Shown one piece after another: positions 2,569-59,132 of a DNA stretch of 64,000 nt (the stretch's first letter is position 1; the number at the start of each line of letters is the position of its first letter). The translations under genes and the position numbers were made by a program. Source of the DNA: a virus; the IMG/VR virus record IMGVR_UViG_3300042882_001508; one strand, 5' to 3'. Under the pieces are notes generated by a model. The model was not told the DNA's origin. It saw only the letters and a program-made list of their open reading frames with translations, and did not search any database.

Positions 2569-3495
2569 ATGGAAAGCCTAGCCAATGTGACCTCACTTTT
2601 CAAGTTTGATATTGTGGGTGATAAATATAAAATAACTTATCTCGGAAAGCCACCGATATATATAAATTTTTCGGTGAAACTGAAAGGTCTCAGTGTCCCT
2701 GTACAAACAATTAGGCACGAATATCAAACAAAAGGGGAATGGTTTATACCAAGTATTGATTATACGGGTTGTGCTATTTTGGAGGTAAGAAACTATGAAA
2801 CTAAGCAATACCTGTTCGATAAAGTTATAAACCCTGTGGTTAGTAAAAAAAGAAAAGAACAAAATATTATTTGTATTGGACTTAATAAGACAGGCACTAG
2901 TTCTTTCTCTGAATCCCTTCAAAAATTAGGATTTAGACTATCACCGGAAGGACTTAATTTTATGACTTGCGTTCAAGATGTACTTTTTGATGATTTAAAT
3001 TCTACATTTTCAATCTTGGAAAACGAGAGATATAATCTCTATGAAGACATGCCATATTCATTTCCATTACTTTACGAAAAAATTTACGAAAGAAGGCCTG
3101 AAGATGTTTTTGTTCTCACAGTAAGAAATGATGTCGAAACATGGATAAAATCTGTGATTAATTTTTATCCCTTACTCCAAAATAAAACAGAAAAAGAATG
3201 GGAAGACAAATCTTATATGAGATATGTGTGGAGTAATGAAAAAGACGATATTTTACTCAATAATCAATTTCCTTTATTAGATGCTTGGGGAATAAAAGAT
3301 ACCACAAATTTGGAGTCAAAACTTAGGGAAATTTATAATACTCATAATCAAAGTGCCATAGAATTTTTTTCACGGAAAAAATCAAATTTCATTGTAATCG
3401 ATGTGTCAAAAAAGAACGAACTTAAAAGATTGTCTAATTGGTTGGGAATTGAAACAAATCAAAATGATTTTGATTGGGTAAACAAAAACAGTTAA
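2569..3495 (+). CDS. Sulfotransferase-domain protein; the ~95 aa N-terminal domain is unknown
   Basis: IICIGLNKTGTSSFSE matches the sulfotransferase 5'-phosphosulfate-binding loop (xKTGTT). FVLTVRNDVETWIKS resembles the 3'-phosphate-binding RxxxxxxxS motif. The C-terminus has the L..WLGIE pattern typical of the family. Confidence 0.45.
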   Translation: MESLANVTSLFKFDIVGDKYKITYLGKPPIYINFSVKLKGLSVPVQTIRHEYQTKGEWFIPSIDYTGCAILEVRNYETKQYLFDKVINPVVSKKRKEQNIICIGLNKTGTSSFSESLQKLGFRLSPEGLNFMTCVQDVLFDDLNSTFSILENERYNLYEDMPYSFPLLYEKIYERRPEDVFVLTVRNDVETWIKSVINFYPLLQNKTEKEWEDKSYMRYVWSNEKDDILLNNQFPLLDAWGIKDTTNLESKLREIYNTHNQSAIEFFSRKKSNFIVIDVSKKNELKRLSNWLGIETNQNDFDWVNKNS

Positions 3496-3781
3496 TTCTT
3501 GGAAATTTTCTTTTTTTCTTTTCCATTATAAAGTCTAAGAAGCTTCAAGGAATCTTTATAATGCTTTTCCAACCTATCCAATTCTTCGATAGGAGTGTTT
3601 GTTTCACAAGCCGAATTATATTGTTCTTCAGCTTCTTGTATTATCTTCTTTATTGTTTTGAGAAGTTTCATATCCTATAAATATTGTCAATTCCTTCCTT
3701 TATTTAACAAGTTAAGAAATTATATTTTGAAGTGTATAAAAACATCGGAACGGGTTATTTATAAGGTAAGAGTAATTTTAA

Positions 3782-6700
3782 ATGGCAGGTTATTATAATT
3801 TTTCAGGAACAAGTTGTACCGATGGACTAGACTATGAATTGTGGACCTTTTATCCACCAGGAGTAACAATTAGTATAGGTTCTGTTTTAAGCGGGGTTAC
3901 GACTTTGGATTATTATACAGTAATTTCTACACCTGTAATTACTCTATCACAACCAGGTTTTGAAGTAGATGGAAACGTAGATTATGGAAGTTGTCCAGCA
4001 ACTCCTACACCTACCGAAACACCCACAAATACTCCAACTCCGAGCGTAACCGAAAGTGAAACTCCAACTCAAACACCTACTCAAACTCCAACTCCCACAA
4101 CATATTGTCTTTGTAATTATTTCGACATGACTATAAGTCAAGCCGATTTGGATGCTGCCATTGGTAACATCACTTTCTTGAATAACACGGTTTATGTTCA
4201 ATATCTTGATTGTTATGGAAATTTTCAAATAACAACATACTCATCTGCAGGTAGTTTCCCAAATACTTTCTGTGCAAGATATGTTCAAGCAACATATTAT
4301 TATGTGAGTGATACACCTGTTGTAGCTGGTACTTCATTCCCTACTGACACATTTAATGATTGTTGTCCGACACCAACACCAACTGAAACATCTACTCAGA
4401 CCCCTACTGAAACACCATCCAATACTCCCACAGAAACCCCAACTCAGACACCTTCACAAACAACTAGCCAAACTCCAACTCAGACTGAAACGGCAACTCA
4501 AACTCCAACTGAGACGCCCACTCAAACCGCAACGCCATCTGCAACAGAAACGCCAACCCAAACTCCAACGGAAACTCCTACACAAACAGAGACAGCAACA
4601 CAAACTCCGACGGAAACTCCTACACAAACAGAAACACCTACACAAACCCCGACACCTGATAGTTCACCAACTCCAACACAAACTGAAACTCCGACAGAGA
4701 CTCCTACTGAAACCCCAACTCAGACTGCAAGTGAAACACCTACTGAAACTCCAACGCAAACCGAGACGCCTACACAAACTCCAACGCCTAATAGTACCCT
4801 AACACCTACTGCCACGGAGACTCCTACAGAAACTCCAACAGCGACCGAAACTCCAACGCAGACACCAAGTGATACGCCAACTCAAACTCCCACTGAAACA
4901 CCAACAGAAACTCCTACACAAACAGCTTCAGAAACTCCTACACAAACAGCCTCAGAAACTCCTACACAAACAGCTTCAGAAACTCCTACACAAACAGCTT
5001 CAGAAACTCCAACTGAGACGCCGACTCAAACTGCTACACCATCTACAACTCCAACGTTTGGGTTAACACCTACCTCAACAGAGACACAAACCCCTACTCA
5101 AACAGAGACCCCAACTCAGACCCCATCAAACACTTCTACTGAAACGCCAACACAAACAGAAACCCCAACAGAGACACCTACTGAAACTCCAACTCAAACT
5201 GCGAGTGAAACACCAACTGAGACCCCAACTCAAACAGAAACGGCCACACAAACTCCGACACCTGATAGTACCCAAACACCGACTGCGACGGAGACTCCTA
5301 CAGAAACTCCAACGGCGACCGAAACTCCTACACAAACCTCAACTCCAACACAAACACCTGGATTGACACCTACACAAACTACAACTCCAACTTTAACACC
5401 TGAGTTAGTCATTCAATTTGAGGAATGTGATTCAAACTTTGTATTTCGTTTTGCAGGTAGTCCGATGGCTTATCTCCCCGTTGATTCGGTTTATTTGATT
5501 GAGGGTAGTTTGGATTTTTCGGGCTGTGCTACGGTTGTGGCATATACTTCAGAAGGTCCACTTTATAATTCTGCTGGAGTTACATTTACTGAAATTGATT
5601 ACTGTGGTAATACGACTTACTGTCCAAGAACTGATAGAAAGGCTGCACAACTTGCAAGATGTAGGGATGGTCTGTTGAGTTATTTCATGGTGGATGTAGA
5701 CACTGCATTCCAATATGGTGTTTATTTCTATCAAGGAGATTGTTGGAAATTTGTAAGATTTGATGGACCTGGTGGTCCATACCTTGGTTCACCAAGTTAT
5801 TTCAGCTGCGAAGATACTGTATGTATACCAACACCAACACCAACTGTAACGCCAAGAGAAACACCAACACAAACTCCAACACCATCCCCAACTCCAACTG
5901 CTTGTCCTTATTCAACTTTTTGTTTTAGAACAACTCAACCTGACCTTGAGGACTTCAGTGGAAATTATACTGAGTATGGCTACGTATATAATGATGAACT
6001 AACTTATTCAGGAGATGGAATTAACATTGGAGTAATTTATTATTTCACATCTTCAACTGAGAGTTATTGGTGTTTAAGCACTTCTTTGGGTGGTTCATGT
6101 GTACTTAGAGGTTCATCACCTTGTAATTCGAACTGTCCTGACATCAGTGGAAACTTCTTCACTTCAGGTGTTTGTCCTACACCTACACCTTCACCATCTG
6201 CCTGCACAATTGACTTTGTTGCATATTTTGATTGTGATTGGGAACCTGTCCCGACGCCGACCTTGACTGTCACAGATGTTGATTTTGATGTAACAAGCAT
6301 TGGACTAACTCCAACACCAACCTCTACAAATCCATGTTTAGGTAAGGCTGTGGAATTCCAATTATATGAGTCTACACCTACACCAACACCATCAAACACC
6401 GCAACACCAACTAGCTCAAGAGTTTATGAACCAGTTGGAGGTAAAGTGTCGTTCGAAATCTTTGATTCACCAATCTCTTGTCCTGAAGTGGCTATTCTCA
6501 AAGAATGCACTCAAGGAACAGATTTCTACTTCTGCGCACAAAATCAATTGGTATTCAACGGTCTTGTTGTGGAACCTGGTACAATAATGAATGCAATTAT
6601 CAACGGACAGTATGTTTGCGTTGAATATATTGGTAATCGTTCTAACACTTCATCAAATTCTGTAATCACCTCTATTATCAACCTTTATTCAGATTGTCAG

Positions 6701-7657
6701 AGCTGTGTTGTTTTTCCAACACCAACAGTTACTCTCACTCCTACTCAAACTCAAACGCCATCTAATACTGCAACACCAACTCAAACCGCGACAGTAACAC
6801 CAACTACTACAACAACAAGAACACCAGATTTGACCCCTGACCCAACAACATCAATAACACCGACAAATACGGCTTCAAACACTCCTACACCGTCTTATAC
6901 TCAAACACCAACCCCAACCAATTTGCAAAAGTATTATGTGTTTACCCTCTGTCCTAATCAAGAAAGTACAATAAGATTTAATAGATTGTTCCAAACTTCA
7001 CCACTCACGGTTCCAATCCTTCCAACCAAAGTATTCACCGATGACAATGGTTTGTGCTGGACATATGAAGGATTCACAACAGCAATTGTTCCAAATCCAA
7101 ATTATGTTGACTTGATTTGGCAAGACAATTATTTCGGTACCGCGGGAGAATTGCAATCGGATACTTGTGACGAGTGCCTCACAACATCTACAAAAATAAA
7201 TCTTCAACTTCAAGTTTTCCCAAGCTTTGAGGGATATATCCCAAGTGGGGCAACAACAACATTTGATAGTCCAAACTTTGGCGTCTCTTTCTATGATGGA
7301 ATTGACCCGAATAATGGAACATTATTTTATCCACCATCTGATGTGTTGAACGACGGTGTAATTGTATTTAATTTGATTACCTTAATTGGTTCAGACCCTT
7401 ATTCAATTTCTAAGTTAGCGGTGGGAGTAATTCACGGAAGATTTTTCTCAAAGGCAAATGTTATTGTTAAAGCATATATTAATGGAGTTTTAGCAAGCCA
7501 AGTAACACAACTTATTGAAGGAAATAGTGAAAACTTCGGAATTCAAATTGGAGGTTTGTTTGAAGAAATAAACTGTGTATCGAACCCGTGTTTGAGAGAA
7601 TTAAATAGAGGAGACATATTACTTATAACAGTAGAACAAAATTCAGAAATAGGATAA
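3782..7657 (+). CDS. Giant Thr/Pro-repeat protein (1291 aa) with several Cys-bounded modules. Putative virion fibre or adhesin
   Basis: Long [11 protein letters not shown] linker blocks alternate with ~90 aa Cys-containing modules (CLCNYF...DCCPTP; ...CIPTPTPT). A ~400 aa non-repetitive C-terminal region follows. Confidence 0.7.
4922..5012 (+). repeat. Tandem 24 nt coding repeat (about 4 copies) encoding (TQTASETP)n
   Basis: acagcttcagaaactcctacacaa repeated four times with one or two substitutions. Confidence 0.8.
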
Positions 7658-9455: not shown

Positions 9456-11654
9456 ATGTCTTGTAATTGTTACCATATCGAAATCCCACAATCCGTACAA
9501 ACCAACGGTGTTAATGAAATATATCTTTGGCAAAAACTTTGTAACTTATACTATATTGCTGGAGTTTGGAACGGCTCTCTTTTGACTTATATGGATGGAA
9601 CTACCGCGGTTTATGACCTGTGTTTGGACAACGAATATGGTATTGAATTTAGTTATGGGTTTAGTGGACCCAAATTCACAACATCTGAGGTTCCTGAAAT
9701 TACAGTAAATATTTTGGGTACTTGTACGGTAATTGGAGATTGTTATACACCACCAACACCCACTCAAACACAAACCCAAACTCAAACGCCATCGCCGACT
9801 CTTACATTAACAGCATCTCCAACCCAAACACCAAGCCAAACTCAGACACCATCACAAACCGGCACACCACCACCAACACCTACTCAAACACAAACCCAAA
9901 CTCAAACACCTTCACCCACAAAAGTTGTCTGTGGCATAGGAGTAACATCTCAAAGTTTTTATTATTATGATTGTTGTGGAAATCTGATATCATCTACTGG
10001 TGCAGGTCAAGAAGTGTCTTTTGATTACACTAAACCTTACCAAGGAGTTACAAAATTGAACCTCTCTACTTCCTCAGTTTGTCCAACTCCAACGCAGACT
10101 CAGACACCGAGCCAAACTCCAAGTCAAACCCAAACTCCAACACAAACACCATCTCAAACTCAAACGCAAACCCAAACGCCAACATCCACCCCTGTACCTA
10201 CGTGTTCTGCTCAACCAAATTTAGCCAACGAGTGTGAAGTTTTCACTCTATTCGATATGGGAGTTCAATGTAACTTGATTAAAGAGCCAACTGTCGGAAG
10301 ATTTGATGGTATATTATCAGTTAATGTGACAGGTGGAACAGCACCTTATACTTTCTATTGGAATACTGGTGAAAGGACTCAAACCATTTCTAACATACCT
10401 TATGGAAGGTACACAGTTCTTGTTGTGGATTATTATGGAGATTATTCCGCCACAACTGCGTGTAATATATTGGCTCCAACACCAACAGCTACTACCACAC
10501 CAACAATCACACCCACACCGTCAACAACACCACCTAACGCTCCACCGTTGTGTTTAAGATTTGTTTCACCTCCGAGTTTTGGAGGGTCTGGTGGCTCTGC
10601 TATGTATAAGGAATTACCTCTGACTTTCGTGACCTCTGGAAACCAAAACGGGAAACCAACGTGGTATAATTATTCAAAAAATCTTTCGATTATTTGGAAT
10701 GACTCAGTAACTCCTAACAGATGGGATATAACAAATTGGCCTTACGGAGGAACACCTATTTCAACAAACCAAGGAACAATACCAGATACAGGATGGCAGT
10801 TCTTGGGTACACCGGGTGTTTATTCCCAAATTGTTTCATCAAGGGGTCAATGTCCTTCGGTTTCTCCATTAGTTTTTGAATATCAAATAACACCAGCTTC
10901 TTGTCCAGGAGTTTGTAACGGAAGTTTGGTGGTTGTGCCAGGAGGAGGAATGACACCATTCAGCTACTCGGTTGATGGCGTTAATTTCCAAAGTTCAAAT
11001 ATTTTCAACAACTTGTGTCCTTCTACTTTCGGTCTTACAATAAAAGATGCTGTAAATCAAACTTATAGTCAATCCATAACAATTGGTTCAGGAACAGCAA
11101 CTACTTTGCAATTGAAACCTGAAATCATTACAAGTAATGGACCTGTCGCAAGTGGACCAAGTGTACAGACAGTAACATGGAAAATAACTTCTAATCCACC
11201 AATACCTGCTGGTGTTTCTTTAACAGGTCAAATCTTGTTCGAAATTTCACAAACAGAACAAGGTCCGACTAGCAGTTCAGGTCCAGCGACAACTTATTTA
11301 ATCAATGCATCTAACGTTGCAATTCAAAATAATTCTACATTAACTTTGTTGACATCTCCTATCATAACTCAAAGTGTCCCGAGTACTTGTAATTCAGCTC
11401 TTGTTTCAGCTTCGAATGAAAATTACTCACAATCAACTCTTGTTACTTTAGGAAATGGATTTATTTTGACAGGTACAACTGTTTCATCATTGAATATTAC
11501 GGGTGGAATTACTCAATTTAACTGTTCAACTACAGCTAAACAAACAATTTCGTTGACCCTTTCAAATTTCAAAGTTTTAGGAAATCCGTGTTACACGGTA
11601 CAAACACAGAATTTGGTATTGGTCAATAATCATACTTACACAATTTCGAGTTAG
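9456..11654 (+). CDS. Thr/Pro-linker protein carrying SprB-type repeats. Putative adhesin-like fibre or receptor-binding protein
   Basis: Two segments fit the SprB repeat pattern of Flavobacterium gliding adhesins: GRFDGILSVNVTGGTAPYTFYWNTGERTQTISNIPYGRYTVLVVDYYGDY and CNGSLVVVPGGGMTPFSYSVDGVNFQSSNIFNNLCPSTFGLTIKDAVNQ. TP/TQ linkers and an N-terminal Cys module (SCNCYHI...GDCYTPPTP) are also present. Confidence 0.7.
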   Translation: MSCNCYHIEIPQSVQTNGVNEIYLWQKLCNLYYIAGVWNGSLLTYMDGTTAVYDLCLDNEYGIEFSYGFSGPKFTTSEVPEITVNILGTCTVIGDCYTPPTPTQTQTQTQTPSPTLTLTASPTQTPSQTQTPSQTGTPPPTPTQTQTQTQTPSPTKVVCGIGVTSQSFYYYDCCGNLISSTGAGQEVSFDYTKPYQGVTKLNLSTSSVCPTPTQTQTPSQTPSQTQTPTQTPSQTQTQTQTPTSTPVPTCSAQPNLANECEVFTLFDMGVQCNLIKEPTVGRFDGILSVNVTGGTAPYTFYWNTGERTQTISNIPYGRYTVLVVDYYGDYSATTACNILAPTPTATTTPTITPTPSTTPPNAPPLCLRFVSPPSFGGSGGSAMYKELPLTFVTSGNQNGKPTWYNYSKNLSIIWNDSVTPNRWDITNWPYGGTPISTNQGTIPDTGWQFLGTPGVYSQIVSSRGQCPSVSPLVFEYQITPASCPGVCNGSLVVVPGGGMTPFSYSVDGVNFQSSNIFNNLCPSTFGLTIKDAVNQTYSQSITIGSGTATTLQLKPEIITSNGPVASGPSVQTVTWKITSNPPIPAGVSLTGQILFEISQTEQGPTSSSGPATTYLINASNVAIQNNSTLTLLTSPIITQSVPSTCNSALVSASNENYSQSTLVTLGNGFILTGTTVSSLNITGGITQFNCSTTAKQTISLTLSNFKVLGNPCYTVQTQNLVLVNNHTYTISS

Positions 11655-11692
11655 ACTATAAAATGAAATCTAAAAAACTATATTTATAAGGG

Positions 11693-13942
11693 ATGGGTTA
11701 CGTAATTAAAAATACATCTGGTTTAATTAACACAAGATTGACTGACGTTGGAAGAAGACAAATCTCCCAAGGAAGTTTCAATATTTCTTATTTTCAAATT
11801 GGAGATAGTGAAGTTTGTTACACCGCAGCTACGAATTACAATCAGGTTAACAACAACATCTTAATGCCTTCTTTTGATGCTCAAAATAACACAGGTTATC
11901 CAGAAGCAAACAAAGAGAATATCAAATACCCATATTATGTTTCAGGTGGACAGGGTGGTACATTTGGAATACCATTCATGGCTAGTGATTACCAATTGGT
12001 TTACAACAGTGCCGGTTTAAAAGGATTTTTCAACACGGGCTCAACCACACCTTGGGTTGCTCAGATAAGTACAGCTTACACAATAACCTCCAATTATGTT
12101 GTAGATATGTCTACATGTTCAGGTCAGACTTCAATTTCAATTGAACTTGACCCTACTATTTGTGCGACCACAACAGGAACACCTTCAATAGGTGATTTTA
12201 TAACAATTTTCTTTGACGGAGTGGGTAGTTGTCAAGATGTTAACAATGTGCCAATATTGACTTACAAGATTATCAATTTATCACCGTCAGTTGGAACTAC
12301 AAGTCAGAGCCCTTGGGTTGTTACATTAGATAGAGAGGTCCCTAATTATACTGCACTTACATCAGGAAGTTATGCGAGAACACTAATTTACCCTTCGGGT
12401 ATGACTGTTCTTTATGATTTTATTACACCAGCACCTTATTGGCAAACTGATACCTTGAATTTTGAATCTCCGTGTGATGTGACTAATAGAGAAAATACTT
12501 TGATTTGGAATATGAATATTCCTTGGTCAGAGAGTCCAGCGGGAGTGTTTTCAAACACGGTACAGGGGTATCAATATTACGATTCAATTTCTTATTTAGG
12601 TTCAAAAGAATATTTGGGATATTCAACACAATCAGGTCAAACATTTGAAATTTCCACCACAAGAGCAAACGAACTAACTGACACATATTATTATAATTCC
12701 TATGGTGAAGAGGTTAAAGTATACCCAAATCAACAGAAAGCCATTGCAATAATCCATTACACAAATCAAGATATTGATTTTGTCTATGGTGAAAAGTTTG
12801 CTACAGTTCCTTTTGACCCACAAAACCCAACAGACGATACAGGACTTGCTCGTCATTTCAAACTTTATATTCCAACATTGATGTGGCATAAATCGACAGG
12901 AGCTACAATCGGTCAGACTTTCATGATTGACCCACCGAATTATGATTTGTGTAAACCACATTATATGAAGTCTACCAAAAACCTGAGAATGAATGAACCA
13001 GGTATGAGGTATTTCCAACTTTGGGATTTAAATCCAGATGCTAATAATAATTTGAACAGGGTAGGTAAAGTTTTCCCTGACCAACAAATTATTGTAATCG
13101 ATGATGAAGAGATTGTTGCTGCGTTATCTAACAAGTCTAATAGAAATTGGACCCTTACAGCCCCAAAAGTAAGTGCAGTTGTTCCAAATGTTTGTAGTAC
13201 AAATAATAATCTTCCTTTGTTTACACAGGCCTCAGATACAATTTGGCTGTCATATAGATTAGACTCAAATTCAAGTGGTTTTACAAATTCATTACATTGT
13301 AACTACTACTCCAAGGTAAATGCGCCAAGTAACACTACGGCAACAAATTGTTATAATTTGGCTGTTCAATTTGGAAACGAATTTCCCTATTTGAACTCAA
13401 ATTGGAGTTCTACTAACGTCACAGGTTTTAGTGCAAACTCAATCAAATTATTGGTTCAGAAAGTAAGTGGAGATACAAAACCTTCACAAACTGAATGGAG
13501 AGAAATCGACGTTACTTCAGATATTTCAAGTACGTTGTTGAACGGATACTTAACCGTAAGTGGAATAACAGGAAACACTTTCCAAATAGACGGTACAACT
13601 TTTGACAATGCGGCTCCTAACACCTACAACCTTTCCAATTATATCGATATTCCCTTACTTGGTGCAACAGGACCAACTTTAAACTTTGGTGGTGAGTATT
13701 ATTTTTACGGGAGTTTGGAAACTGATATTGCGGCAACTATCTACGAAATGAAATATCTTGTGAATTTGGGTAGAAACCAATTTACAAATACTTCGAACCC
13801 TACATGGATGTCAGGGACAACATCTTATGTCACCGAAATTGGTCTTTACGATTCAAATTATAATCTTATAGTTATATCTAAACTACAATCTCCTGAGAAA
13901 AGACAAGGTGTTCAGCAGTATGTAGTTAAATTAGATTTCTAA
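11693..13942 (+). CDS. Large virion-associated protein (749 aa), function unknown. Possibly fibre or baseplate associated
   Basis: A long ORF with uniform codon usage that follows the fibre-like genes. No motif was recognised. Confidence 0.5.
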   Translation: MGYVIKNTSGLINTRLTDVGRRQISQGSFNISYFQIGDSEVCYTAATNYNQVNNNILMPSFDAQNNTGYPEANKENIKYPYYVSGGQGGTFGIPFMASDYQLVYNSAGLKGFFNTGSTTPWVAQISTAYTITSNYVVDMSTCSGQTSISIELDPTICATTTGTPSIGDFITIFFDGVGSCQDVNNVPILTYKIINLSPSVGTTSQSPWVVTLDREVPNYTALTSGSYARTLIYPSGMTVLYDFITPAPYWQTDTLNFESPCDVTNRENTLIWNMNIPWSESPAGVFSNTVQGYQYYDSISYLGSKEYLGYSTQSGQTFEISTTRANELTDTYYYNSYGEEVKVYPNQQKAIAIIHYTNQDIDFVYGEKFATVPFDPQNPTDDTGLARHFKLYIPTLMWHKSTGATIGQTFMIDPPNYDLCKPHYMKSTKNLRMNEPGMRYFQLWDLNPDANNNLNRVGKVFPDQQIIVIDDEEIVAALSNKSNRNWTLTAPKVSAVVPNVCSTNNNLPLFTQASDTIWLSYRLDSNSSGFTNSLHCNYYSKVNAPSNTTATNCYNLAVQFGNEFPYLNSNWSSTNVTGFSANSIKLLVQKVSGDTKPSQTEWREIDVTSDISSTLLNGYLTVSGITGNTFQIDGTTFDNAAPNTYNLSNYIDIPLLGATGPTLNFGGEYYFYGSLETDIAATIYEMKYLVNLGRNQFTNTSNPTWMSGTTSYVTEIGLYDSNYNLIVISKLQSPEKRQGVQQYVVKLDF

Positions 13943-13944
13943 TT

Positions 13945-14547
13945 ATGGGACGTAAACAAATCAAAGAGGATTCACCGAAGGTCCTCGGTCTAGATATTTC
14001 CACAAAAACAATCGGATGGGCACTTTTCGATATCGGGACAAAAAATTTATTGGAACTCACCCATGTTTCTCCAAGACCGAAAGATGTTGAAAATAAAATT
14101 GAGGAATTAATTCTCAAAGCAATTATTTTTAGAAACAAGTTGGAACAATACGTTGGACTTGGAATACAAAAGGTTGTAATCGAAGAACCGTTACTTAACT
14201 CAAATAACATTTGGACCGTAAGCACACTTATGAGATATAATACTCTGATTTGCAAAGAAGTGTATGATGTTTTGGGTATAGTTCCTGAATTTATTTCAAC
14301 TTATAACTCAAGAAAATTTGCATTCCCGCACTTGGTTCAAAAAAATGAAAAAGGAAAGTTTGTATTATTTGGCGGTTTTTCAAAAGACATAGACAAAAAA
14401 GTTGTAATTTGGGAACTTGTTGCAAAAAGGGAACCACAAATAACTTGGCAATACACCAAAAATAATACCCTGAAAAAAGAAAATTACGACCAAACAGATG
14501 CCTATTGTGCAGTCTTAGGATACATGAAATCACAAGACCTTTGGTAA
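13945..14547 (+). CDS. RuvC-like Holliday-junction resolvase
   Basis: N-terminal VLGLDISTKTIGWALFD resembles the RuvC/A22 GxDxGxxxxGxA motif. C-terminal DQTDAYCAVLGY resembles the RuvC terminal acidic motif. Confidence 0.55.
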   Translation: MGRKQIKEDSPKVLGLDISTKTIGWALFDIGTKNLLELTHVSPRPKDVENKIEELILKAIIFRNKLEQYVGLGIQKVVIEEPLLNSNNIWTVSTLMRYNTLICKEVYDVLGIVPEFISTYNSRKFAFPHLVQKNEKGKFVLFGGFSKDIDKKVVIWELVAKREPQITWQYTKNNTLKKENYDQTDAYCAVLGYMKSQDLW

Positions 14548-15166: not shown

Positions 15167-16080
15167 TGCAAGACGAAGTAGAAGTACTTATTGAACTTTT
15201 GAGTGATGTTTTAGGAGACCCCAAAAATCACTATGAATCGAAAGCACAAATCTCATTCGATTGTCCTGTCTGTGCGGCAGAAAAAGGATTGGAAAACGGT
15301 GATGGTAAAGGGAACTTCGAAGTCAATTATTCAAGGCACGTTTACAAGTGTTGGGCTTGTGGAGATACATTAGGAACACACGGACCACTAGGTAAATTGT
15401 TTGACAAGTGGGGAACCAAGAAACAGAAAAAACTTTACGATTTAGTTAAACCCGAAGAACTCAAAATCGAAGACAAAAAGAAAGTTTATCTAAGACTTCC
15501 CGAAGGTTACACCCAATTCAAAGATTCAAATTCAAGATTTATTCCTCACAGAGAGGCTCACAGTTATTTAAAGGACAGAGGAATTACCGATGAGATGATT
15601 GAGAAATATAAAATTGGATATACTGTCAAAGGGGATTTTGCATACAGAGTTATTGTTCCTTCCTATAACTCCCAAGGTAATTTGAATTATTTTGTTGCGA
15701 GGGCTTGGGTTCCCAAAAAAATGAAATACAAAAACCCAACCGCTCAAAAAGACGAGATTATTTTCAATGAAGGTTTAATTGATTGGAGTAAAGATATCTT
15801 TCTTTGTGAAGGTGTCTTTGATAGTTTTTTCTTAGACAATCCTTTGGTCATGCTCGGTAAGAAGTTATCAAAACTAGCATTTACTACAATTTACGAGAAG
15901 GCTCAGGGAAATATAATTGTCTGCACGGATGGGGATGCTTGGGAAGATGGTTTGAAGATTTATCACGAACTGAACGGTGGAAGGCTCTATAACAAAATTA
16001 AAATTGTTAAATTGCCAAAAGATAAGGATATTTGTGACTTGAAAGGAAACATTTCCGAATTTTATCACGAAATAAAATAA
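15166..16080 (+). CDS. DNA primase with a Cys4 zinc ribbon and a Toprim domain
   Basis: CPVC...CWAC zinc ribbon; RGITDEMIEKYKIGY resembles the DnaG/T7 primase motif; Toprim-like IFLCEGVFD and IVCTDGDAWEDG. Start revised to the TAATG overlap at 15166. Confidence 0.6.
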   Translation: MQDEVEVLIELLSDVLGDPKNHYESKAQISFDCPVCAAEKGLENGDGKGNFEVNYSRHVYKCWACGDTLGTHGPLGKLFDKWGTKKQKKLYDLVKPEELKIEDKKKVYLRLPEGYTQFKDSNSRFIPHREAHSYLKDRGITDEMIEKYKIGYTVKGDFAYRVIVPSYNSQGNLNYFVARAWVPKKMKYKNPTAQKDEIIFNEGLIDWSKDIFLCEGVFDSFFLDNPLVMLGKKLSKLAFTTIYEKAQGNIIVCTDGDAWEDGLKIYHELNGGRLYNKIKIVKLPKDKDICDLKGNISEFYHEIK

Positions 16081-38234: not shown

Positions 38235-38538
38235 AGAACTAAAACAAAAAATTAACAATGGTGAAAACTTCGTCTTGGATTTATATGCAACATGGTGTGG
38301 TCCTTGCAAAGTGATGTTAAGAAACTTGGAACAAGTGAATGAATCCTTGATAAAAGAATCAACAAATCAACCAAAATATAAAATTTATAAGTACGATATC
38401 GACACTGACAAAGAGTTTGTCGTATCTGAACTTGGAATTAGAAGTGTCCCAACGATAAAAATCTTCAAGGAGGGAAAAGAAGTTTTTTCAAGACCTGGCG
38501 TAATGATGCCAACTGAACTACTCACTTTATTAAATTAA
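38215..38538 (+). CDS. trx: Thioredoxin
   Basis: WCGPC active site in a ~105 aa protein. Start revised to MIQLTTEEL at 38215. Confidence 0.75.
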   Translation: MIQLTTEELKQKINNGENFVLDLYATWCGPCKVMLRNLEQVNESLIKESTNQPKYKIYKYDIDTDKEFVVSELGIRSVPTIKIFKEGKEVFSRPGVMMPTELLTLLN

Positions 38539-44772: not shown

Positions 44773-44773
44773 G

Positions 44774-52591: not shown

Positions 52592-52594
52592 AAA

Positions 52595-54180: not shown

Positions 54181-54411
54181 ATGATTGACAATACAGAATG
54201 GGTCAATGGACCCTCTCACTACGGAGGAAAAGAAAACCCATACGAAGTAATTAAAGTTTGTGAAGCTTGGGAGCTCGATAAAGACGCTTATTTATTCAAC
54301 GTGGTCAAATATGTTGCTCGAGCAGGAAAGAAAGACGTCTCTAAAGAAATTGAAGACCTTAAGAAAGCGGCTTTTTATTTAGATAGAAAAATTAAAAATT
54401 TAGAAAAATGA
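54181..54411 (+). CDS. DUF3310-like phage protein
   Basis: SHYGGKENPYEVIKVCEAW...FNVVKYVARAGKK...DLKKAAFYL fits the DUF3310 pattern (HYGG...IE...F..GNAIKY..RAG.K..EDL.KA..Y) that is often found beside phage nucleotide kinases. Confidence 0.45.
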   Translation: MIDNTEWVNGPSHYGGKENPYEVIKVCEAWELDKDAYLFNVVKYVARAGKKDVSKEIEDLKKAAFYLDRKIKNLEK

Positions 54412-54860
54412 TTATTTGGTTAACAGGTCAACCCGGTGCGGGTAAAACAACAATTTGTAAAAAAATTTTACTTAGAGACGCTAGTATTTTCCACATCGAT
54501 GGAGATGACCTCAGAGATTTATTTGAGAACAAAGACTACTCCGAACAAGGTAGAAGAAAAAACATTGAGTTAGCCCAACAAATTGCTCAGTATCTCACTA
54601 ACAAGGGTGAAGATGTATTAGTATCTTTGGTTTCCCCCTACAAAGACCAAAGAAATAAATTCAAAGAAAAGATGGGGGATAAATTGGTAGAGGTTTATGT
54701 TCATACTTCTGAAAAAAGAGGGAGAGAAGATTTCTTCGTAAAAGAATATGGACAACCCACCGAAAATTACCTTGACATTGATACAACAAATGAAAGTGTT
54801 GAGGAGTCAGCTCAAAAAGTATTAGAATATGCGAAGAATAAACCAAACACAACCAAATAA
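54408..54860 (+). CDS. P-loop kinase, adenylyl-sulfate (APS) kinase-like
   Basis: Walker A GQPGAGKTT, then IDGDDLR and SLVSPYKDQR...LVEVYV. These line up with APS kinase LDGDNVR / FISPYRADR / FIEVFV. Confidence 0.5.
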   Translation: MIIWLTGQPGAGKTTICKKILLRDASIFHIDGDDLRDLFENKDYSEQGRRKNIELAQQIAQYLTNKGEDVLVSLVSPYKDQRNKFKEKMGDKLVEVYVHTSEKRGREDFFVKEYGQPTENYLDIDTTNESVEESAQKVLEYAKNKPNTTK

Positions 54861-54896: not shown

Positions 54897-55439
54897 ATGA
54901 AAGCAATTGATTTAAAAGGACAAAAATTTGGTAAACTGTTGGTTAAAGAGTTTGCGGGACATAAAAACAACTTAAGACAATGGTTATGTGTCTGTGAGTG
55001 TGGAAATGAAAAAATTGTTAGAGGGGGACATTTAACTAAAGGGTTTACAAAAACCTGCGGTTGTGAAGCTCACCCAACACAATTTAACCATAAATCTTGG
55101 AAAGGTTATGGAGAGATTCCCTTAGATTTTTTTACTACCATTAAGAAAAACGCAGAACGTAGAAACATTGAATTTTATATTACAATTGAATATCTTTGGG
55201 AAATCTTCGTAAAACAAAATAAAAAATGTGCATTATCTGGTAGAGACTTAAAATTTGGGAGAATTGTAAAAGATAGAAAGGGTAAAAATGTTTCTGTTGA
55301 TAGAATTGATTCTTCTAAAGGTTATGTAAACGGAAATATCCAATGGATAGATAAACAAATAAACATTATGAAGAATAATTTGGATGAAAATGAATTCTTA
55401 CAGCTTTGTAATGATATTGTAAACTATAAAAAAATATGA
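54897..55439 (+). CDS. HNH-family (homing) endonuclease-like protein
   Basis: N-terminal Cys cluster CVCECGNE...CGC. The C-terminus (SGRDLKFGR...VSVDRIDSSKGYVNGNIQWIDKQINIMKNN) matches the HNH_3-type pattern. Confidence 0.5.
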   Translation: MKAIDLKGQKFGKLLVKEFAGHKNNLRQWLCVCECGNEKIVRGGHLTKGFTKTCGCEAHPTQFNHKSWKGYGEIPLDFFTTIKKNAERRNIEFYITIEYLWEIFVKQNKKCALSGRDLKFGRIVKDRKGKNVSVDRIDSSKGYVNGNIQWIDKQINIMKNNLDENEFLQLCNDIVNYKKI

Positions 55440-55837
55440 AAAAAATTCACGTTGAGGGAGACCCAAAATTAAAAAACACAGGAGGAAAACAGTATTCAAT
55501 GGTAGTCGGACGATTTCAACCTTTTCACGATGGACACAAATGGTTGGTTAATCAATGTTTAGAGGATGGTAAAAATGTTCTGATTTGTATTAGAGACATC
55601 CAACCAGATGAAAAAAATCCATTTTCACCTGAAGACGTTCAAAGAAATATCATGAACGAACTTTGGAAACTTATAGGAGAAGAAAAAGTTAAGGTCATGA
55701 TTATACCCGATATTGAGTCAGTGAATTTCGGAAGAGGTGTTGGATATGATATCATTGAGCATGTACCACCTCAAGAAGTTCATGATATTTCTGCAACAAA
55801 AATCCGTGAACAAATGAGACAGGAGGGAAAGTTATGA
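55436..55837 (+). CDS. Nicotinamide/nicotinate mononucleotide adenylyltransferase-like nucleotidyltransferase (archaeal NadM type)
   Basis: The HxGH motif GRFQPFHDGH is identical in form to the archaeal/NadM NMNAT GRFQPFHxGH. The ~130 aa size suits a minimal NMNAT. Confidence 0.5.
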   Translation: MKKIHVEGDPKLKNTGGKQYSMVVGRFQPFHDGHKWLVNQCLEDGKNVLICIRDIQPDEKNPFSPEDVQRNIMNELWKLIGEEKVKVMIIPDIESVNFGRGVGYDIIEHVPPQEVHDISATKIREQMRQEGKL

Positions 55838-56067: not shown

Positions 56068-56134
56068 AAAATATTTTCAATTTACTGGACTTAGTGGAAA
56101 AAAATCATTAAAATTGAATTATTAAACTGTTATA

Positions 56135-56998
56135 ATGGAAAATTTTTTAGGTAATATAATAAATGGTGACTGTATAGTAGAGATGGCTAAAATGCCTGAA
56201 AACTCAATCGATTTAATTGTCACTTCCCCACCATACGGAGTCGGGATTGAATATGACTCATTCGATGATGATATGAACATAGAAGACTACAAAGAGTTTT
56301 CGAAGAAATGGCTCACTGAGGCTTATAGACTTCTGAAGGCGGATGGTAGAATTGCTCTCAATGTTCCTTATGAAATCAACCGACAGGATAAAGGAGGAAG
56401 AGTTTTTATTGCCTCTGAACTTTGGCAGATTATGCAAAGAATTGGTTACAAATTTTATGGTATTGTGGATTTGGATGAAGATTCTCCACACAGAAGTAAG
56501 ACCACGGCTTGGGGTTCATGGATGTCTCCTTCTGCACCTTACATCTACAATCCGAAAGAGTGTGTTATCTTGGCTTACAAATCTAAACATATTAAGATTG
56601 TTAAAGGTGAACCCGAGTGGGTTGGCGTGATTGATGAGATTGAACAAGAGGATGGAACAAAAAAGAAAAAAACTCTTTATACTGAAGAACAGAAGAAAGA
56701 ATTTATGGATTTGGTTTATGGACAGTGGACGTATTTTGCAGACACAAAACAAATGACCAAAGCAACCTTTTCTTTGGATATCCCAATGAAAGCTATGAAG
56801 ATACTCACATATAAAAATGACGTCGTCTTGGACCCTTTCTGTGGGTCTGGTACAACTCCAGTTGCTGCAGTGATATCAGGAAGAAATTGGGTGGGTATTG
56901 AACTCAGTCCGAACTATTGTGAAATAGCCCGTCAAAGAGTTAAACAATTCGTGGATAAAAAGAAACAAACTAAATTAGATTTCGAAGAAGGGGTTTAA
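56135..56998 (+). CDS. DNA methyltransferase, beta class N6-adenine/N4-cytosine (N6_N4_Mtase family)
   Basis: The catalytic IVTSPPY precedes the AdoMet motif DPFCGSGTT, which is the beta-class order. A terminator follows the gene. Confidence 0.75.
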   Translation: MENFLGNIINGDCIVEMAKMPENSIDLIVTSPPYGVGIEYDSFDDDMNIEDYKEFSKKWLTEAYRLLKADGRIALNVPYEINRQDKGGRVFIASELWQIMQRIGYKFYGIVDLDEDSPHRSKTTAWGSWMSPSAPYIYNPKECVILAYKSKHIKIVKGEPEWVGVIDEIEQEDGTKKKKTLYTEEQKKEFMDLVYGQWTYFADTKQMTKATFSLDIPMKAMKILTYKNDVVLDPFCGSGTTPVAAVISGRNWVGIELSPNYCEIARQRVKQFVDKKKQTKLDFEEGV

Positions 56999-57015
56999 AA
57001 ACCCCTTTTTTTATT
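56987..57015 (+). terminator. Intrinsic terminator after the DNA methyltransferase gene
   Basis: aaggggttt-aa-aaacccctt followed by tttttttatttttt. Confidence 0.6.
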
Positions 57016-57043
57016 TTTTGGATATTTATAGGAAATTATTCCT

Positions 57044-57415
57044 ATGAAAGAAGAACTCATAAAAAAACTCGTTCAAATTCAACTTCAATTTAAATTTTTA
57101 CATTGGCAAACTTTTGGAGATGCTAAACATAGACTTTATGGAGAAATCTATGATAAGTTGGGAGACTTTATTGATGAGTTCACTGAAACAATGATGGGAA
57201 AATACGGAAGACCAGAGTTTGACTCTGAATTTGGAATTATGTTTCAAGATATTTCGGCATTGAGTATGCAGAATTTTATAGATGGAATTACTGAATTTTT
57301 TGTTGGGATGTCAGACCAACTCGACTCAAGATATGATACAGACTTACTCAACATTAGAGATGAGATGTTGGGTCTCATAAATAAATCTAAGTACTTATTA
57401 ACACTCAAATACTAA
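57044..57415 (+). CDS. Hypothetical protein
   Basis: ORF. Confidence 0.35.
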   Translation: MKEELIKKLVQIQLQFKFLHWQTFGDAKHRLYGEIYDKLGDFIDEFTETMMGKYGRPEFDSEFGIMFQDISALSMQNFIDGITEFFVGMSDQLDSRYDTDLLNIRDEMLGLINKSKYLLTLKY

Positions 57416-57711
57416 TGGCACAGAAAATTGTAAGACTAAGCGAAGGTGACTTAATTAATCTTGTAAAAAGGGTTATCACCGAACAAAAAAAATTCGAACT
57501 ATTCATGAATCCTGGTCAAACAGCTGAAGCAGAATTGATTGGAGACATATTGACTATTTTTTCTCAGATGGGGAAAGACCAAATCTTTAAAGTAAAAACA
57601 TCTTTACCGAAAGGAAAATTTATGTTTGAATATTCGAAAGATGGAAAATATTACGGATACGATAAGAGAGGAAAAAAACATGAAATCCTTTTGATAGAAA
57701 AAAGAAAATGA
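57415..57711 (+). CDS. Hypothetical protein
   Basis: ORF. Confidence 0.35.
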   Translation: MAQKIVRLSEGDLINLVKRVITEQKKFELFMNPGQTAEAELIGDILTIFSQMGKDQIFKVKTSLPKGKFMFEYSKDGKYYGYDKRGKKHEILLIEKRK

Positions 57712-59132
57712 AAAAACTATTAAAAGAGTCTGGTTTAAGAGATATTTCGGCTTTGAGGAAAAGATACCCTAAAGCCGAAATTTATTTTCACCTTGACCTT
57801 GATGGTGTGACCACCGCAATTGCAATGAAAAAATACCTTGAGGACAATGGAATCAAGGTGGTTGGAGCACACACCATTCAATATGGGGACAAAGAATTTG
57901 CTGTTAAAAAGTTGGATGCTGAAGGTGATACAATGCCGGTACTTGTAGATTTCGCTCATGGTAAACCCATGTTCGTTATTCATACTGACCACCACGACAG
58001 ACAGGTAGGAGCTGAACCCGAGGCCTCTAAATCATTCAGACAAGCCCGTTCCAACGTAGAGACAATATCTCAAATAGTTTCTCCTAAAGAAATATTTCCA
58101 ACCGCAGATATCCTCCTAATAAGCACCGTTGACTCGGCTAACTTTTTGAAACATGAAATTACACCCGAGGACGTTGTGAATTATATTTTCAGATTGGATA
58201 AAGATAAGACCCTTCAGAAAAATAAAATGTTACTTGGGTTGGTTATCAACAAACTGATTTTAGCTTTCAAAAACCGAAAAGGTTTTATGGAGAGTTTGGT
58301 TATGGATTCAGAACCTTCCCTTATGTCCATTTTCAATAACATTAAGAAATGGATGAAAATGACAAGTGCTGAGGACTTTGCTACCCTTCAACAAAGGTCC
58401 GATGATTACTTGGAACAAATGAAAAAATATCCGAAGGTAAGAGTTGAAGACGGAATAATTTTTCAATACGGTGCAGGAAATATGAAGTCTGGTTCATATG
58501 ATAGATACACTCCTTTTAGAGTGAATCCAAATGCAGACTTTCTTATTCTAATGTGGCCGATGGGACTTTTACAAGTCTCTTGTAACCCTTTTAAAAAAGA
58601 CAGAAAGTTGAAAGGAGTTAATTTGGGAGAGATGGCTCAGGACGTTCTTAAACCTTTTGAAAGCCAACTCAAATCAAGAACAATCCCTCTTTCGACAATC
58701 AAATGGTTGAGTGAAATAAGTACAAAACCCGGTGATGTTGGATTTACATTCAAAGATTTCAATGCCCTTTTCGGTGGTAAAATTGCTTTCATTGATGGAG
58801 GTAACGAAATTTTAGATAGAATCAAACCGATGATGGACAAACCTTTTTCCGAACTCAAGGAAGAAGAAAAACAACTTTTGGATAAAATTGGAATTAACAT
58901 GTGGGATTTTATTCAATCAAATTCAGGGGGACACAAATGTATTACGAATATTTCAGGTCTAAATTTTCTTGGAAGAAAGACAAGACCATCAGAGGACCCA
59001 TACAGATATGACCCAGATAAGCCAGATGTTCCATATATCAAATTCATGAGACAACTTGGAACAAAATTTTTCAATATATTGAAAGATAAAATTCAAGAGG
59101 AACAACAAAAAGAAAAAGAAGTATCGAATTAA
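57708..59132 (+). CDS. DHH-DHHA1 family phosphoesterase (NrnA/RecJ-core-like)
   Basis: DHH motifs YFHLDLDGVTTA (DxD) and VIHTDHHD (DHH). The C-terminus has the DHHA1 motif SNSGGHK (GGGH-like). Confidence 0.55.
   Translation: MKKLLKESGLRDISALRKRYPKAEIYFHLDLDGVTTAIAMKKYLEDNGIKVVGAHTIQYGDKEFAVKKLDAEGDTMPVLVDFAHGKPMFVIHTDHHDRQVGAEPEASKSFRQARSNVETISQIVSPKEIFPTADILLISTVDSANFLKHEITPEDVVNYIFRLDKDKTLQKNKMLLGLVINKLILAFKNRKGFMESLVMDSEPSLMSIFNNIKKWMKMTSAEDFATLQQRSDDYLEQMKKYPKVRVEDGIIFQYGAGNMKSGSYDRYTPFRVNPNADFLILMWPMGLLQVSCNPFKKDRKLKGVNLGEMAQDVLKPFESQLKSRTIPLSTIKWLSEISTKPGDVGFTFKDFNALFGGKIAFIDGGNEILDRIKPMMDKPFSELKEEEKQLLDKIGINMWDFIQSNSGGHKCITNISGLNFLGRKTRPSEDPYRYDPDKPDVPYIKFMRQLGTKFFNILKDKIQEEQQKEKEVSN

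Follow-up and report, generated by a model that had tools for sequence, protein, structure and literature searches.

A putative two-gene PAPS synthase, a sulfotransferase and a possible PAP phosphatase in a freshwater jumbo phage

Can a phage activate sulfate and transfer it to a glycan with genes of its own? The question is raised by the record IMGVR_UViG_3300042882_001508, of which a stretch of 64,000 nucleotides was analysed (hereafter the window). The window belongs to the genome of a jumbo phage from fresh water, about 0.3 Mb in size and probably with a host among the Bacteroidota. The initial annotation noted genes for a sulfotransferase, a kinase resembling APS kinase and a DHH/DHHA1 phosphoesterase, and all three are indeed present (Table 1). 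It missed a key fourth gene, encoding a small nucleotidyltransferase (NT). The sulfation genes of the window lie in two unlinked places, with the sulfotransferase and the kinase 52 kb apart.

Table 1. Features of the window that bear on the proposed sulfation pathway.
Feature	Position	Strand	Basis and remarks
Methyltransf_24 methyltransferase	937..1554	-	Pfam PF13578, 62.8 bits; same glycan island as the GT9-like gene
GT9-like glycosyltransferase	1562..2506	-	Pfam Glyco_transf_9, 39 bits; glycan island, next to the sulfotransferase gene and divergent from it
PAPS-type sulfotransferase	2569..3495	+	N-terminal beta-sandwich (about aa 10-90), then Sulfotransfer_4-like catalytic domain (aa 100-307)
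1291-aa Thr/Pro-rich protein, TPTETPTQ repeat	3782..7657	+	ORF and repeats read from the sequence; directly downstream of the sulfotransferase
Short-lid APS-kinase-family kinase	54408..54860	+	Pfam APS_kinase, PDB matches, motifs; proposed APS-to-PAPS step
Endonuclease-like mobile ORF	54897..55439	+	Inserted; splits the kinase-NT pair; not part of the pathway
NT, 133-aa NMNAT-derived nucleotidyltransferase	55436..55837	+	Conserved partner of APS kinase; candidate sulfate adenylyltransferase
Terminator-like hairpin	56984..57011	+	12-bp stem followed by a T-run; consensus scan only
DHH/DHHA1 phosphoesterase, possible PAP (pAp) phosphatase	57708..59132	+	Fold, DHH motifs; least certain part
NUDIX hydrolase	59491..59910	+	Pfam NUDIX, 69 bits; conserved companion of the DHH gene

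Profile matches and a predicted structure identify the first of these enzymes as a PAPS-type sulfotransferase, encoded in a variable island of glycan and surface-protein genes. Its catalytic domain matches Pfam PF17784 at 55.8 bits (cut-off 22.8), and the same domain is present in all 48 relatives. In an alignment of 36 sequences, reaching down to 21% identity, no variation is seen at G104, N106, K107, G109 and T110 of the 5'-PSB loop or at R186, and S195 of the 3'-PB site is nearly invariant (at least 90%); D160 (invariant) and H259 (nearly invariant) are candidates for the catalytic base. Sulfotransferases are described as having conserved Gly and Lys residues in the PSB loop and a conserved Ser in the 3'-phosphate-binding element (PMC11625862). 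The family profile recovers solved sulfotransferases from the PDB at an E-value of 5.5e-9, and the PDB matches of the AF2 model (pLDDT 93.7) found by Foldseek at E <= 0.001 are sulfotransferases in 16 cases out of 16, among them Schistosoma SULT-OR, Cpz8 with PAP bound and SgdX2 (TMt 0.74); the PAPS-binding sulfotransferase fold expected for this protein is borne out by both approaches.

The long Thr/Pro-rich protein encoded next to it, which has no Pfam match, can be put forward speculatively as a carrier of the sulfated glycan. Sulfotransferase homologues elsewhere likewise adjoin large proteins, of the CHU_C, Cohesin or Por_Secre_tail kind. A PDB sequence search with the ORF at the left edge of the window gave no match.

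The kinase, whose family JGI labels 'adenylylsulfate kinase', matches Pfam APS_kinase (PF01583) at 70.4 bits against a cut-off of 21.1, over residues 2-103 only, and its best PDB matches are all APS kinases. It stays below the cut-off of all PRK subfamily models, and no AAA_28 match is found in it at E <= 0.1. When phage kinases and fusions are aligned with Salmonella CysC, 2yvu and 8a8h, the P-loop residues G7, G10, G12, K13 and T15 are invariant, together with D31, D33, R36, R49, P77 and R82. From the P. chrysogenum and human structures we take the P-loop, the DGDxxR motif, the second Arg and the (I/V)SP motif to bind Mg-ATP and the phosphosulfate of APS. The canonical mobile lid of about 30 residues (RDxKGLYKKAR...FTGI) takes part in substrate binding. 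Judged from alignments, the lid of the window kinase has 12 residues (EKRGREDFFVKE), whereas Salmonella CysC and the canonical phage enzyme of LR756500 have 30 each. The region corresponds to residues 128-157 of 8a8h, described as substrate-binding (PMC10322725). Two features set the protein apart from canonical CysC, namely a lid shorter by 18 residues and a score of 74.6 bits with the NCBIfam apsK equivalog TIGR00455, below the cut-off of 138.7. The earlier description as APS-kinase-like holds in so far as the protein clusters with CysC-type enzymes and not with dNMP or NMN kinases.

Kinase and NT form an evolutionarily locked pair. In phages, the NT follows the kinase in 80 of 80 loci, its start overlapping the kinase stop in 67, and the two are fused in phages Salvo (gp32) and DLP_6; another natural fusion is KKR60884.1 from Nomurabacteria. 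An APS kinase likewise adjoins the NT in 76 of 80 cellular loci, where NT homologues (45-51% identical) are found beside canonical CysC, sulfotransferases and CysQ; sulfotransferases are the commonest flanking genes of the cellular pair, and fusions of the NT to canonical, full-lid APS kinases occur in both orders. Because NTs are adjacent or fused to APS kinases across bacteria, archaea and phages, the pair probably makes PAPS by a route that has not been described. The connection that the initial annotation drew between its three genes therefore gains a firmer tie to sulfate, through the NT partner of APS kinases and the sulfotransferase-rich neighbourhoods, but the three genes are not inherited together as a unit.

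On this basis, the following pathway can be proposed. The NT would adenylylate sulfate (ATP + sulfate -> APS + PPi), and the kinase would convert APS to PAPS by phosphorylating its 3'-OH. By using up APS, the kinase would draw the unfavourable NT reaction forward, and this would account for the close coupling of the two proteins and for their fusions. The sulfotransferase would then pass the sulfate of PAPS to a glycan or glycoprotein acceptor, possibly the neighbouring Thr/Pro-rich protein, fibre proteins or the host envelope, and release PAP, which the DHH/DHHA1 phosphoesterase may hydrolyse to AMP, the least certain step. We judge the chances of this pathway as a whole to be marginally better than even. 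A wider proposal is offered more tentatively, as falling somewhat short of an even chance: the NT of the window and its hundreds of relatives (110-135 aa, NMNAT-derived) would constitute a third, unrecognised class of sulfate adenylyltransferase and, with an adjacent or fused APS kinase, a minimal PAPS synthase of bacteria (including CPR), archaea and phages, which here would feed a phage sulfotransferase acting on a virion or host surface glycan, with the DHH protein clearing PAP.

For the DHH protein, the best structural match of the model is the PAP phosphatase MtPAPP of Methanothermococcus thermolithotrophicus (PDB 8a8k), at 11% identity; MtPAPP has 317 aa, whereas the phage protein has 474, with helical insertions. 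H28, D30, D32, D81, D94, H95, H96 and D142 are invariant in 35 homologues, as is S406-G407-G408-H409 of the DHHA1 GGGH motif, and the DHH motif residues correspond to the MtPAPP ligands His6, Asp8, Asp10, Asp57, His76, His77 and Asp127. The N-terminal domain is the weak part of the AF2 model, and the nucleotide-site residues of MtPAPP could not be aligned; by sequence, the family profile matched no solved DHH protein in the PDB. Within this lineage, the gene lies 3 kb from the kinase-NT pair in all 40 loci, and one protein, P0438, is an NT-DHH fusion. No kinase was found within 12 kb of the homologues in LR745206 and LR756502, and the cellular NT-kinase loci use CysQ-type phosphatases, this DHH protein occurring in none of them. 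The protein may thus be a PAP phosphatase, as first suggested: the fold appears to be the right one, and the indications of the role are three, namely the rank of the fold match, the synteny within the lineage and the single fusion protein.

We would give an even chance to a different role, compatible with the pathway proposed above, in which the DHH/DHHA1 protein either recycles nucleotides as a RecJ/NrnA-like exonuclease or cleaves (cyclic) dinucleotides as a phosphodiesterase that works with the NUDIX hydrolase. The NUDIX gene is syntenic with the DHH gene in the lineage, and the huge phage LR745206 has one too, 1.4 kb downstream of its DHH homologue; the closest solved relatives of the window's NUDIX protein are MutT/MTH1/NudI-type enzymes, and it may be unrelated to sulfation. 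The terminator-like hairpin parts the block of kinase, NT and methyltransferase genes from the DHH block.

The genes of the pathway differ in how widely they are distributed. Kinase, NT and DHH protein are encoded by core genes, with thousands of relatives, but the sulfotransferase gene is accessory and rare, with 48 relatives. Going by its invariant motif, it is missing from relatives of 317-321 kb, such as IMGVR_UViG_3300031951_000003; a scan of IMG/VR with the single sequence gave no match and one with the family profile gave 6 loci only, around which 10 kb of flank were seen, as compared with the 52 kb between sulfotransferase and kinase in the window. At the P0140 locus, no kinase or DHH gene was found within 10 kb; P0140 and P0171 each have a longest contig of 31,709 bp, which hinted at a shared contig, but this could not be confirmed, the places retrieved for P0171 being on other contigs. 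Given the contrast between a core kinase-NT pair and an accessory sulfotransferase, PAPS made by the phage probably also feeds other sinks besides the phage sulfotransferase, for example host assimilation or host sulfotransferases.

The same distribution favours an explanation in which the pair makes PAPS, or the kinase uses host APS, as an auxiliary module that boosts assimilatory sulfate reduction or sulfation in the host; the presence of the sulfotransferase would then be a coincidence, and the DHH protein would be a nuclease or nanoRNase with no part in the module. The genes beside the CysC-NT pair of marine Bacteroidota are those of the methionine cycle and not sulfotransferases, and in distant huge phages the DHH gene is linked to NUDIX, not to the kinase. 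Moreover, the COBRA study reports genes annotated as APS kinase in large freshwater phage genomes, as here, and reads this phage cysC, enriched in large genomes and highly transcribed, as part of assimilatory sulfate reduction; an adjacent NT, a shortened lid or a phage sulfotransferase is not mentioned there (PMC10914622). We nevertheless regard this explanation as unlikely. A PAPS-dependent sulfotransferase encoded by the phage needs PAPS, of which the phage's own PAPS module is the obvious source, sulfotransferases are the dominant neighbours of the pair across cellular loci, and no PAPS reductase was found among the ORFs of the window.

A further alternative arises from the ancestry of the NT. 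Searched against the PDB, its family profile retrieves the archaeal and NadM-type NMNATs as closest solved relatives (MJ0541 at 2e-13, NadM at 4e-13), with which it shares the motifs GRFQPFHxGH, NPF and ISxTxIR; R26, H31, G33 and H34 are invariant in the family, with conservation of at least 90% at N61, P62, S119, T121 and R124. The homology is confined to profile positions 3-75, and the middle segment of the NMNATs (residues 77-108 of MJ0541, 32 residues), which we take to carry the residues that contact nicotinamide, is reduced to 7 residues. NCBIfam NMNAT models score 31-35 bits on the NT against cut-offs of 127-418. Sat/MET3 enzymes are marked by the motifs QxRN, HxxH, VGRDHAG (the GRD loop) and PFR (PMC6607087, PMC3779200). 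The NT has only HxxH of these (H31-D-G-H34) and no ATP sulfurylase among its PDB matches at E < 10, so it is not a member of the classical ATP sulfurylase family (PF01747). Its invariant GR[GD]VGY was considered as a GRD loop and rejected, as the profile alignment places it at 'RGYEV' of the NMNATs and no sulfurylase is matched. It is from genomic context that we infer the NT to be a candidate for work like that of an ATP sulfurylase.

Such an NT could, with its kinase, act on a substrate other than sulfate, either in a NAD+ salvage of the NadR type or in a CoA-like route of adenylylation followed by 3'-phosphorylation, the sulfotransferase then drawing on host PAPS. The vicinity of a NUDIX gene recalls NadM-type enzymes, the short lid could fit a larger acceptor, and the rebuilding of NAD+ by a phage is established for NARP3 of phage Bas30, a NadR-like NMNAT plus ribosylnicotinamide kinase accompanied by the transporter PnuC (PMC13464706), which likewise couples a P-loop kinase to an adenylyltransferase of NMNAT fold. 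However, the kinase here belongs to the APS-kinase family and not to RNK/AAA_28, the same NT is paired with and fused to canonical full-lid APS kinases, the NMNAT middle segment is missing, the NUDIX protein resembles MutT/MTH1 and not ADP-ribose pyrophosphatase, cellular contexts are related to sulfur (sulfotransferases, CysQ) and not to NAD, and the scan of window ORFs revealed no PnuC, NAMPT or PRPP synthetase. Salvage of NAD was downgraded after the NT-seeded genome scan because APS kinases, canonical CysC included, are the universal neighbour of the NT and sulfotransferases its commonest flank, and we consider any non-sulfate substrate improbable.

Fusions of ATP sulfurylase to APS kinase are familiar as bifunctional PAPS synthases: PAPSS1/2 of metazoans, the Sat-CysC of Aquifex and fungi, and CysNC. 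As in these, adenylyltransferase and APS-kinase domain here lie side by side, are coupled in translation or form a single protein, in either order and in contexts of sulfation or sulfur metabolism. The NT differs from their sulfurylases in being a small NMNAT-derived domain (HxGH and ISxTxIR) with no detectable similarity to Sat or CysD, the phage kinase has 12 lid residues instead of 30, and the PAPS activity of the pair is putative. Sulfate activation is textbook knowledge, and to our knowledge two types of ATP sulfurylase have been recognised, Sat and CysDN. A literature search, incomplete in coverage, found neither an NMNAT-like sulfurylase nor a fusion of APS kinase to a cytidylyltransferase, and a prior description is possible. 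If the NT is a third, miniature type, the annotation of sulfur pathways would change, since such proteins would be hidden under the name 'cytidyltransferase-like protein', or as the half that lacks annotation in proteins named only 'adenylyl-sulfate kinase'; reduced genomes, such as those of CPR and DPANN, and viromes in which 'cysC' is counted as an AMG would be affected most.

Sulfation by a phage, presented in the initial annotation as new biology, would be only partly so, given the phage cysC discussed above and clusters of SAT/APS kinase and sulfotransferase in giant viruses. Moumouvirus australiensis encodes the SAT/APS kinase Ma457 and the sulfotransferase Ma461, Cotonvirus is similar, and Tupanvirus has the SAT/APS kinase alone; the sulfation function is predicted, not validated (PMC10117803). 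Like the phage, these viruses combine sulfate activation with a sulfotransferase set among glycosylation genes, there for surface fibrils, and, as in the phage lineage, sulfate activation is retained in some relatives that lack the sulfotransferase. The giant-virus enzyme is, however, a classical bifunctional SAT/APS kinase (624-655 aa) adjoining the sulfotransferase, whereas the phage has a non-classical pair of genes at a distance. If our reading is correct, jumbo phages that are abundant in fresh water supply themselves with PAPS, and some of them use it to sulfate glycans, as so far predicted only for giant viruses, with a bearing on adsorption, adherence to mucus or matrix, and superinfection exclusion.

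The ORF that separates kinase and NT in the window is absent from 80 of 80 related loci. A PDB sequence search with it gave no match; it shares 45% identity (3e-50) with the N-terminal domain of P0380, a protein in which this domain is joined to an NT, and it has nucleotide similarity to genes of crAss-like phages annotated 'endonuclease'.

The kinase is accompanied by a 133-aa nucleotidyltransferase (NT; motifs GRFQPFHDGH and ISATKIR), which lies 3' of it in all 80 related phage loci, the NT start overlapping the kinase stop by 4–59 nt in 67 of these. One PHROG covers both proteins, the kinase matching one half and the NT the other, and a single gene encodes them in the Xylella phages Salvo, Sano and Bacata, in phages of Xanthomonas and Stenotrophomonas and in Clavibacter phage 33. 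Functional coupling of kinase and NT is almost certain. In the window, a 180-aa ORF that none of the 80 relatives has comes between the two. A domain homologous to this ORF (45% identity, P0380) is joined in frame to the NT in other sequences (proteins P0360, P0380 and P0419); the ORF is a mobile, endonuclease-like element inserted at the kinase/NT junction. A different insertion of ~755 nt occupies the same junction in locus L046 and seven other phage loci; the junction looks like a recurrent target of a homing element.

Features of the window discussed in the text
Coordinates	Strand	Feature
1–936	-	311-aa ORF with IDSDVIV (DxD-like) motif
2569–3495	+	Sulfotransferase
3782–7657	+	1291-aa Thr/Pro-repeat protein
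21962–22453		denV-like pyrimidine-dimer glycosylase
23525–24322		Sigma-70-family factor
38152–38538		Thioredoxin
39626–47272	+	Three successive genes (819–895 aa), collagen triple-helix repeats and C-terminal Peptidase_S74 (endosialidase chaperone) domain
54181–54411	+	DUF3310 protein
54408–54860	+	APS-kinase-like kinase
54897–55439	+	180-aa ORF
55436–55837		NT
57044–57415	+	DUF5856 protein
57708–59132	+	DHH/DHHA1 phosphoesterase
57708–59910		DHH gene with downstream NUDIX gene
59129–59500	-	DUF192 protein
60261–60290		Best promoter-like match of the region (11/12 positions)
60290–60366	+	tRNA-Met (CAT)
62524–63066		Band_7/SPFH protein

By sequence, the NT derives from archaeal/NadM NMNAT (profile E 2e-13), of which it retains the ATP-binding half only, with seven residues in place of 32 in MJ0541 (residues 77–108). 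At least 90% of family members keep R53 and R100, and the MJ0541 NMNAT has a Gly at the position of R53. Public databases name the NT a "cytidyltransferase-like protein" and its fusions only "adenylyl-sulfate kinase", and our literature search found no published description of it.

We scanned 185,579 species genomes with the NT motifs alone as query, and the best 80 loci span Bacteroidota, Marinimicrobia, Acidobacteriota, Omnitrophota, Planctomycetota, Alphaproteobacteria, CPR, DPANN and methanogen-related archaea. An APS-kinase gene directly adjoins the NT in 76 of the 80 (56 upstream, 20 downstream). Where the partner ORF could be classified (59 loci), 24 kinases have a full canonical lid and 35 a short one of 7–12 residues; among the full-lid partners is CysC that matches the Salmonella enzyme at E ~1e-65. 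Kinase and NT are also found fused in one ORF, with the kinase first in 22 cases and the NT first in 10. Eight of these fusions contain a full-lid kinase, as do proteins of 328 aa from Nomurabacteria and 292 aa from Omnitrophota. When 1.84 billion representative proteins were searched independently, 472 NT relatives came up at E <= 1e-10; 35 of the best 150 are of fusion length, 30 of them with an APS-kinase domain. Sulfotransfer_3 is the commonest Pfam family beside the cellular loci (9 of 145 nearest and 6 of 137 second-nearest flanking genes), and Sulfotransfer_1, arylsulfotransferase, sugar-nucleotide enzymes and 2OG oxygenases are present there too. No recurrent ATP-sulfurylase, CysD/PAPS_reduct or CysN families were found among these flanking genes. 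In Bradyrhizobium, for instance, a TPR-Sulfotransfer_3 protein is encoded after a fused kinase-NT; in Flavobacteriales, CysC-NT lies close to a CysQ-type phosphatase; and in marine Bacteroidota, CysC-NT adjoins genes for SAM synthetase or homocysteine methyltransferase.

Since adjacency and independent fusions tie the NT firmly to APS kinases, in sulfotransferase-rich neighbourhoods without a classical sulfurylase, this genomic context suggests that, most simply, it supplies APS. Sulfate adenylylation is thermodynamically unfavourable, and coupling to the kinase would pull it forward. On balance, the kinase-NT pair probably makes PAPS, sharing its logic with classical bifunctional PAPS synthases but using a different adenylyltransferase. 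A potentially important new element is the NT itself, a candidate for a third sulfate adenylyltransferase class. Our first reading of the pair, NadR-like NAD+ salvage (NARP3, PMC13464706), was overturned by the genome scan. Membership of the classical ATP sulfurylase family, defined by the motifs QxRN, HxxH, VGRDHAG and PFR (PMC6607087, PMC3779200), is rejected, as sequence and profile comparison detected no similarity of the NT to these enzymes.

The kinase scores 70.4 bits against Pfam APS-kinase, and genuine APS kinases or APS-kinase domains account for the top 19, and 21 in total, of its 25 matches to PDB sequences at E <= 0.01, with ~35–40% identity to solved APS kinases over aa 2–100. 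Invariant positions that it shares with Salmonella CysC and two archaeal APS kinases are the P-loop, D31, D33, R36, R49, P77 and R82. However, it fails the TIGR00455 cut-off (74.6 versus 138.7 bits), and its lid comprises 12 residues (EKRGREDFFVKE) rather than the canonical 30 with the signature KGLYKKAR...FTGI; the lid region of the Methanothermococcus thermolithotrophicus APS kinase (residues 125–152) has been described as substrate-binding (PMC10322725). The kinase motifs quoted in the initial annotation are found in the sequence, and the kinase belongs to the APS-kinase family without being a canonical CysC. As an internal control, the 462-kb huge phage LR756500 (LR756500.1; L096, region 10014–12498) carries a canonical full-lid APS kinase, and neither an NT nor a DHH gene lies within 12 kb of it; ~1 kb 5', two ORFs off, an ORF of 318 aa combines a P-loop with a HAD-like DxDGT motif. 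The DUF3310 gene that overlaps the window kinase start by 4 nt is present in 80 of 80 loci.

The sulfotransferase call of the initial annotation is borne out, and we regard it as very probably correct. Sulfotransfer_4 scores 55.8 bits (cut-off 22.8). Across 36 aligned relatives, with identities as low as 21%, the 5'-phosphosulfate loop (G104, N106, K107, G109, T110) and the 3'-phosphate element (R186, S195), PAPS-binding features as defined in PMC11625862, are invariant or nearly so. The family profile matches solved PAPS-dependent sulfotransferases at E 5.5e-9. The AlphaFold model (pLDDT 93.7) has an N-terminal beta-sandwich followed by a sulfotransferase-matching domain, and all 16 significant Foldseek PDB matches are sulfotransferases, Cpz8 (solved with PAP) among them.

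The gene is located within a glycan island. On its 5' side, a GT9-like transferase, a Methyltransf_24 protein and the left-edge 311-aa ORF lie on the opposite strand; the last had no match in a PDB sequence search and, from its DxD-like motif, may be a GT-A glycosyltransferase completing the island. Directly 3' is the 1291-aa protein, mostly TPTETPTQ-type repeats with Cys-containing modules and without a Pfam match, which is mucin-like in sequence and adjoins the sulfotransferase and glycosyltransferase genes; further large proteins are encoded beyond it. In related contigs, sulfotransferase homologues occur among GT2 and UDP-galactopyranose mutase genes and adjoin CHU_C, Cohesin or Por_Secre_tail proteins. 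The family is rare, with 48 clusters in 5.8 billion proteins and six IMG/VR loci, three of these in giant-virus MAGs, and no homologues were found in GenBank phages.

The three genes that the initial annotation had linked are present exactly at the positions it gave, all on the + strand. They are not an evolutionary unit: the kinase and DHH protein have thousands of relatives each (more than 120 at >= 70% identity), the sulfotransferase only 48. None of seven kinase-bearing IMG/VR contigs (100–321 kb) is among those with GLNKTGT[ST], the motif that is invariant in the sulfotransferase. PAPS made by such phages must therefore in most cases be consumed elsewhere. It could go into assimilation by the host, which the COBRA paper assumes for phage cysC (PMC10914622), or to sulfotransferases of the host or of other phage families. 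In the window phage, the encoded PAPS-dependent sulfotransferase is an obvious consumer.

Evidence on the DHH protein as pAp phosphatase is divided. All 40 loci of the window's lineage have the gene ~3 kb 3' of the kinase-NT pair, and in P0438 (432 aa; L181, 4051–5349) an NT is fused to a DHH/DHHA1 domain, which can be aligned to the window protein across motifs I–II (E 0.002). The P0438 contig is phage-like (ThyX, NUMOD3 and SNase genes) and has no APS-kinase-like gene in its 10.8 kb. Against a pathway link, no kinase lies within 12 kb of the DHH homologues in the huge phages LR745206 and LR756502, the phosphatases at cellular NT-kinase loci are of the CysQ type, and a terminator-like hairpin separates the kinase-NT and DHH gene blocks. 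PAP phosphatase activity is plausible, but somewhat less likely than not. In LR745206.1 (635 kb; L097), the DHH homologue (11971–13962; 44% identity; 663 aa versus 474 aa in the window, ~190 residues longer) has a NUDIX gene just downstream (15367–15846), as does the window's lineage, which suggests a functional pair independent of the kinase. The small DUF5856, DUF192 and DUF3310 genes are conserved with the module.

Overall, the initial observation is confirmed and its interpretation as a PAPS cycle partly supported. The kinase-NT pair would synthesise PAPS in the phage and feed the sulfotransferase, with the DHH protein possibly clearing PAP; this is the best explanation, at roughly even confidence. 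Virus-encoded sulfate activation and transfer is already known as a kind, of which the window is a variant: SAT/APS-kinase and sulfotransferase glycosylation clusters have been predicted in giant viruses, Tupanviruses keeping the activation gene only (PMC10117803). Phage cysC AMGs reported from freshwater viromes are a precedent for the kinase, and MtPAPP, a DHH-family PAP phosphatase of M. thermolithotrophicus, for the DHH protein.

Oxygenases of the 2OG-Fe(II) and Asp/Asn-hydroxylase types recur beside cellular NT-APS-kinase pairs (L101–L180; four first and five second neighbours), and oxygenases also lie near the kinase-NT fusion in Salvo (L081, gp24, annotated "cysteine dioxygenase") and DLP_6 (L082, AAY80_224); the observation also covers L099 10150–10680. 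This recurrence may reflect a hydroxylation-then-sulfation link. In L114 (6548–8907) and comparable loci of Flavobacteriales, CysC-NT is immediately followed by genes for a DeoC/LacD-type aldolase and for an aldehyde dehydrogenase, found at three loci each in the neighbour scans, an arrangement reminiscent of sulfo-sugar or sulfonate metabolism.

The window (GC ~33%) also encodes a primase, an SbcC-like protein and a SprB-repeat protein. Homologous IMG/VR contigs reach 317–321 kb, database searches found no close cultured relative, and the closest cellular homologues of the kinase-NT pair are from Crocinitomicaceae and Flavobacteriales. The window is a piece of an abundant, uncultured, freshwater-type jumbo phage, the host of which is probably a member of the Bacteroidota. 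The collagen-repeat/Peptidase_S74 proteins are probably tail fibres, and GC rises locally to ~0.5 across their genes because of Gly-X-Y codons. The lone tRNA-Met gene lies inside ~1.3 kb without ORFs, with the promoter-like match directly 5' of it.
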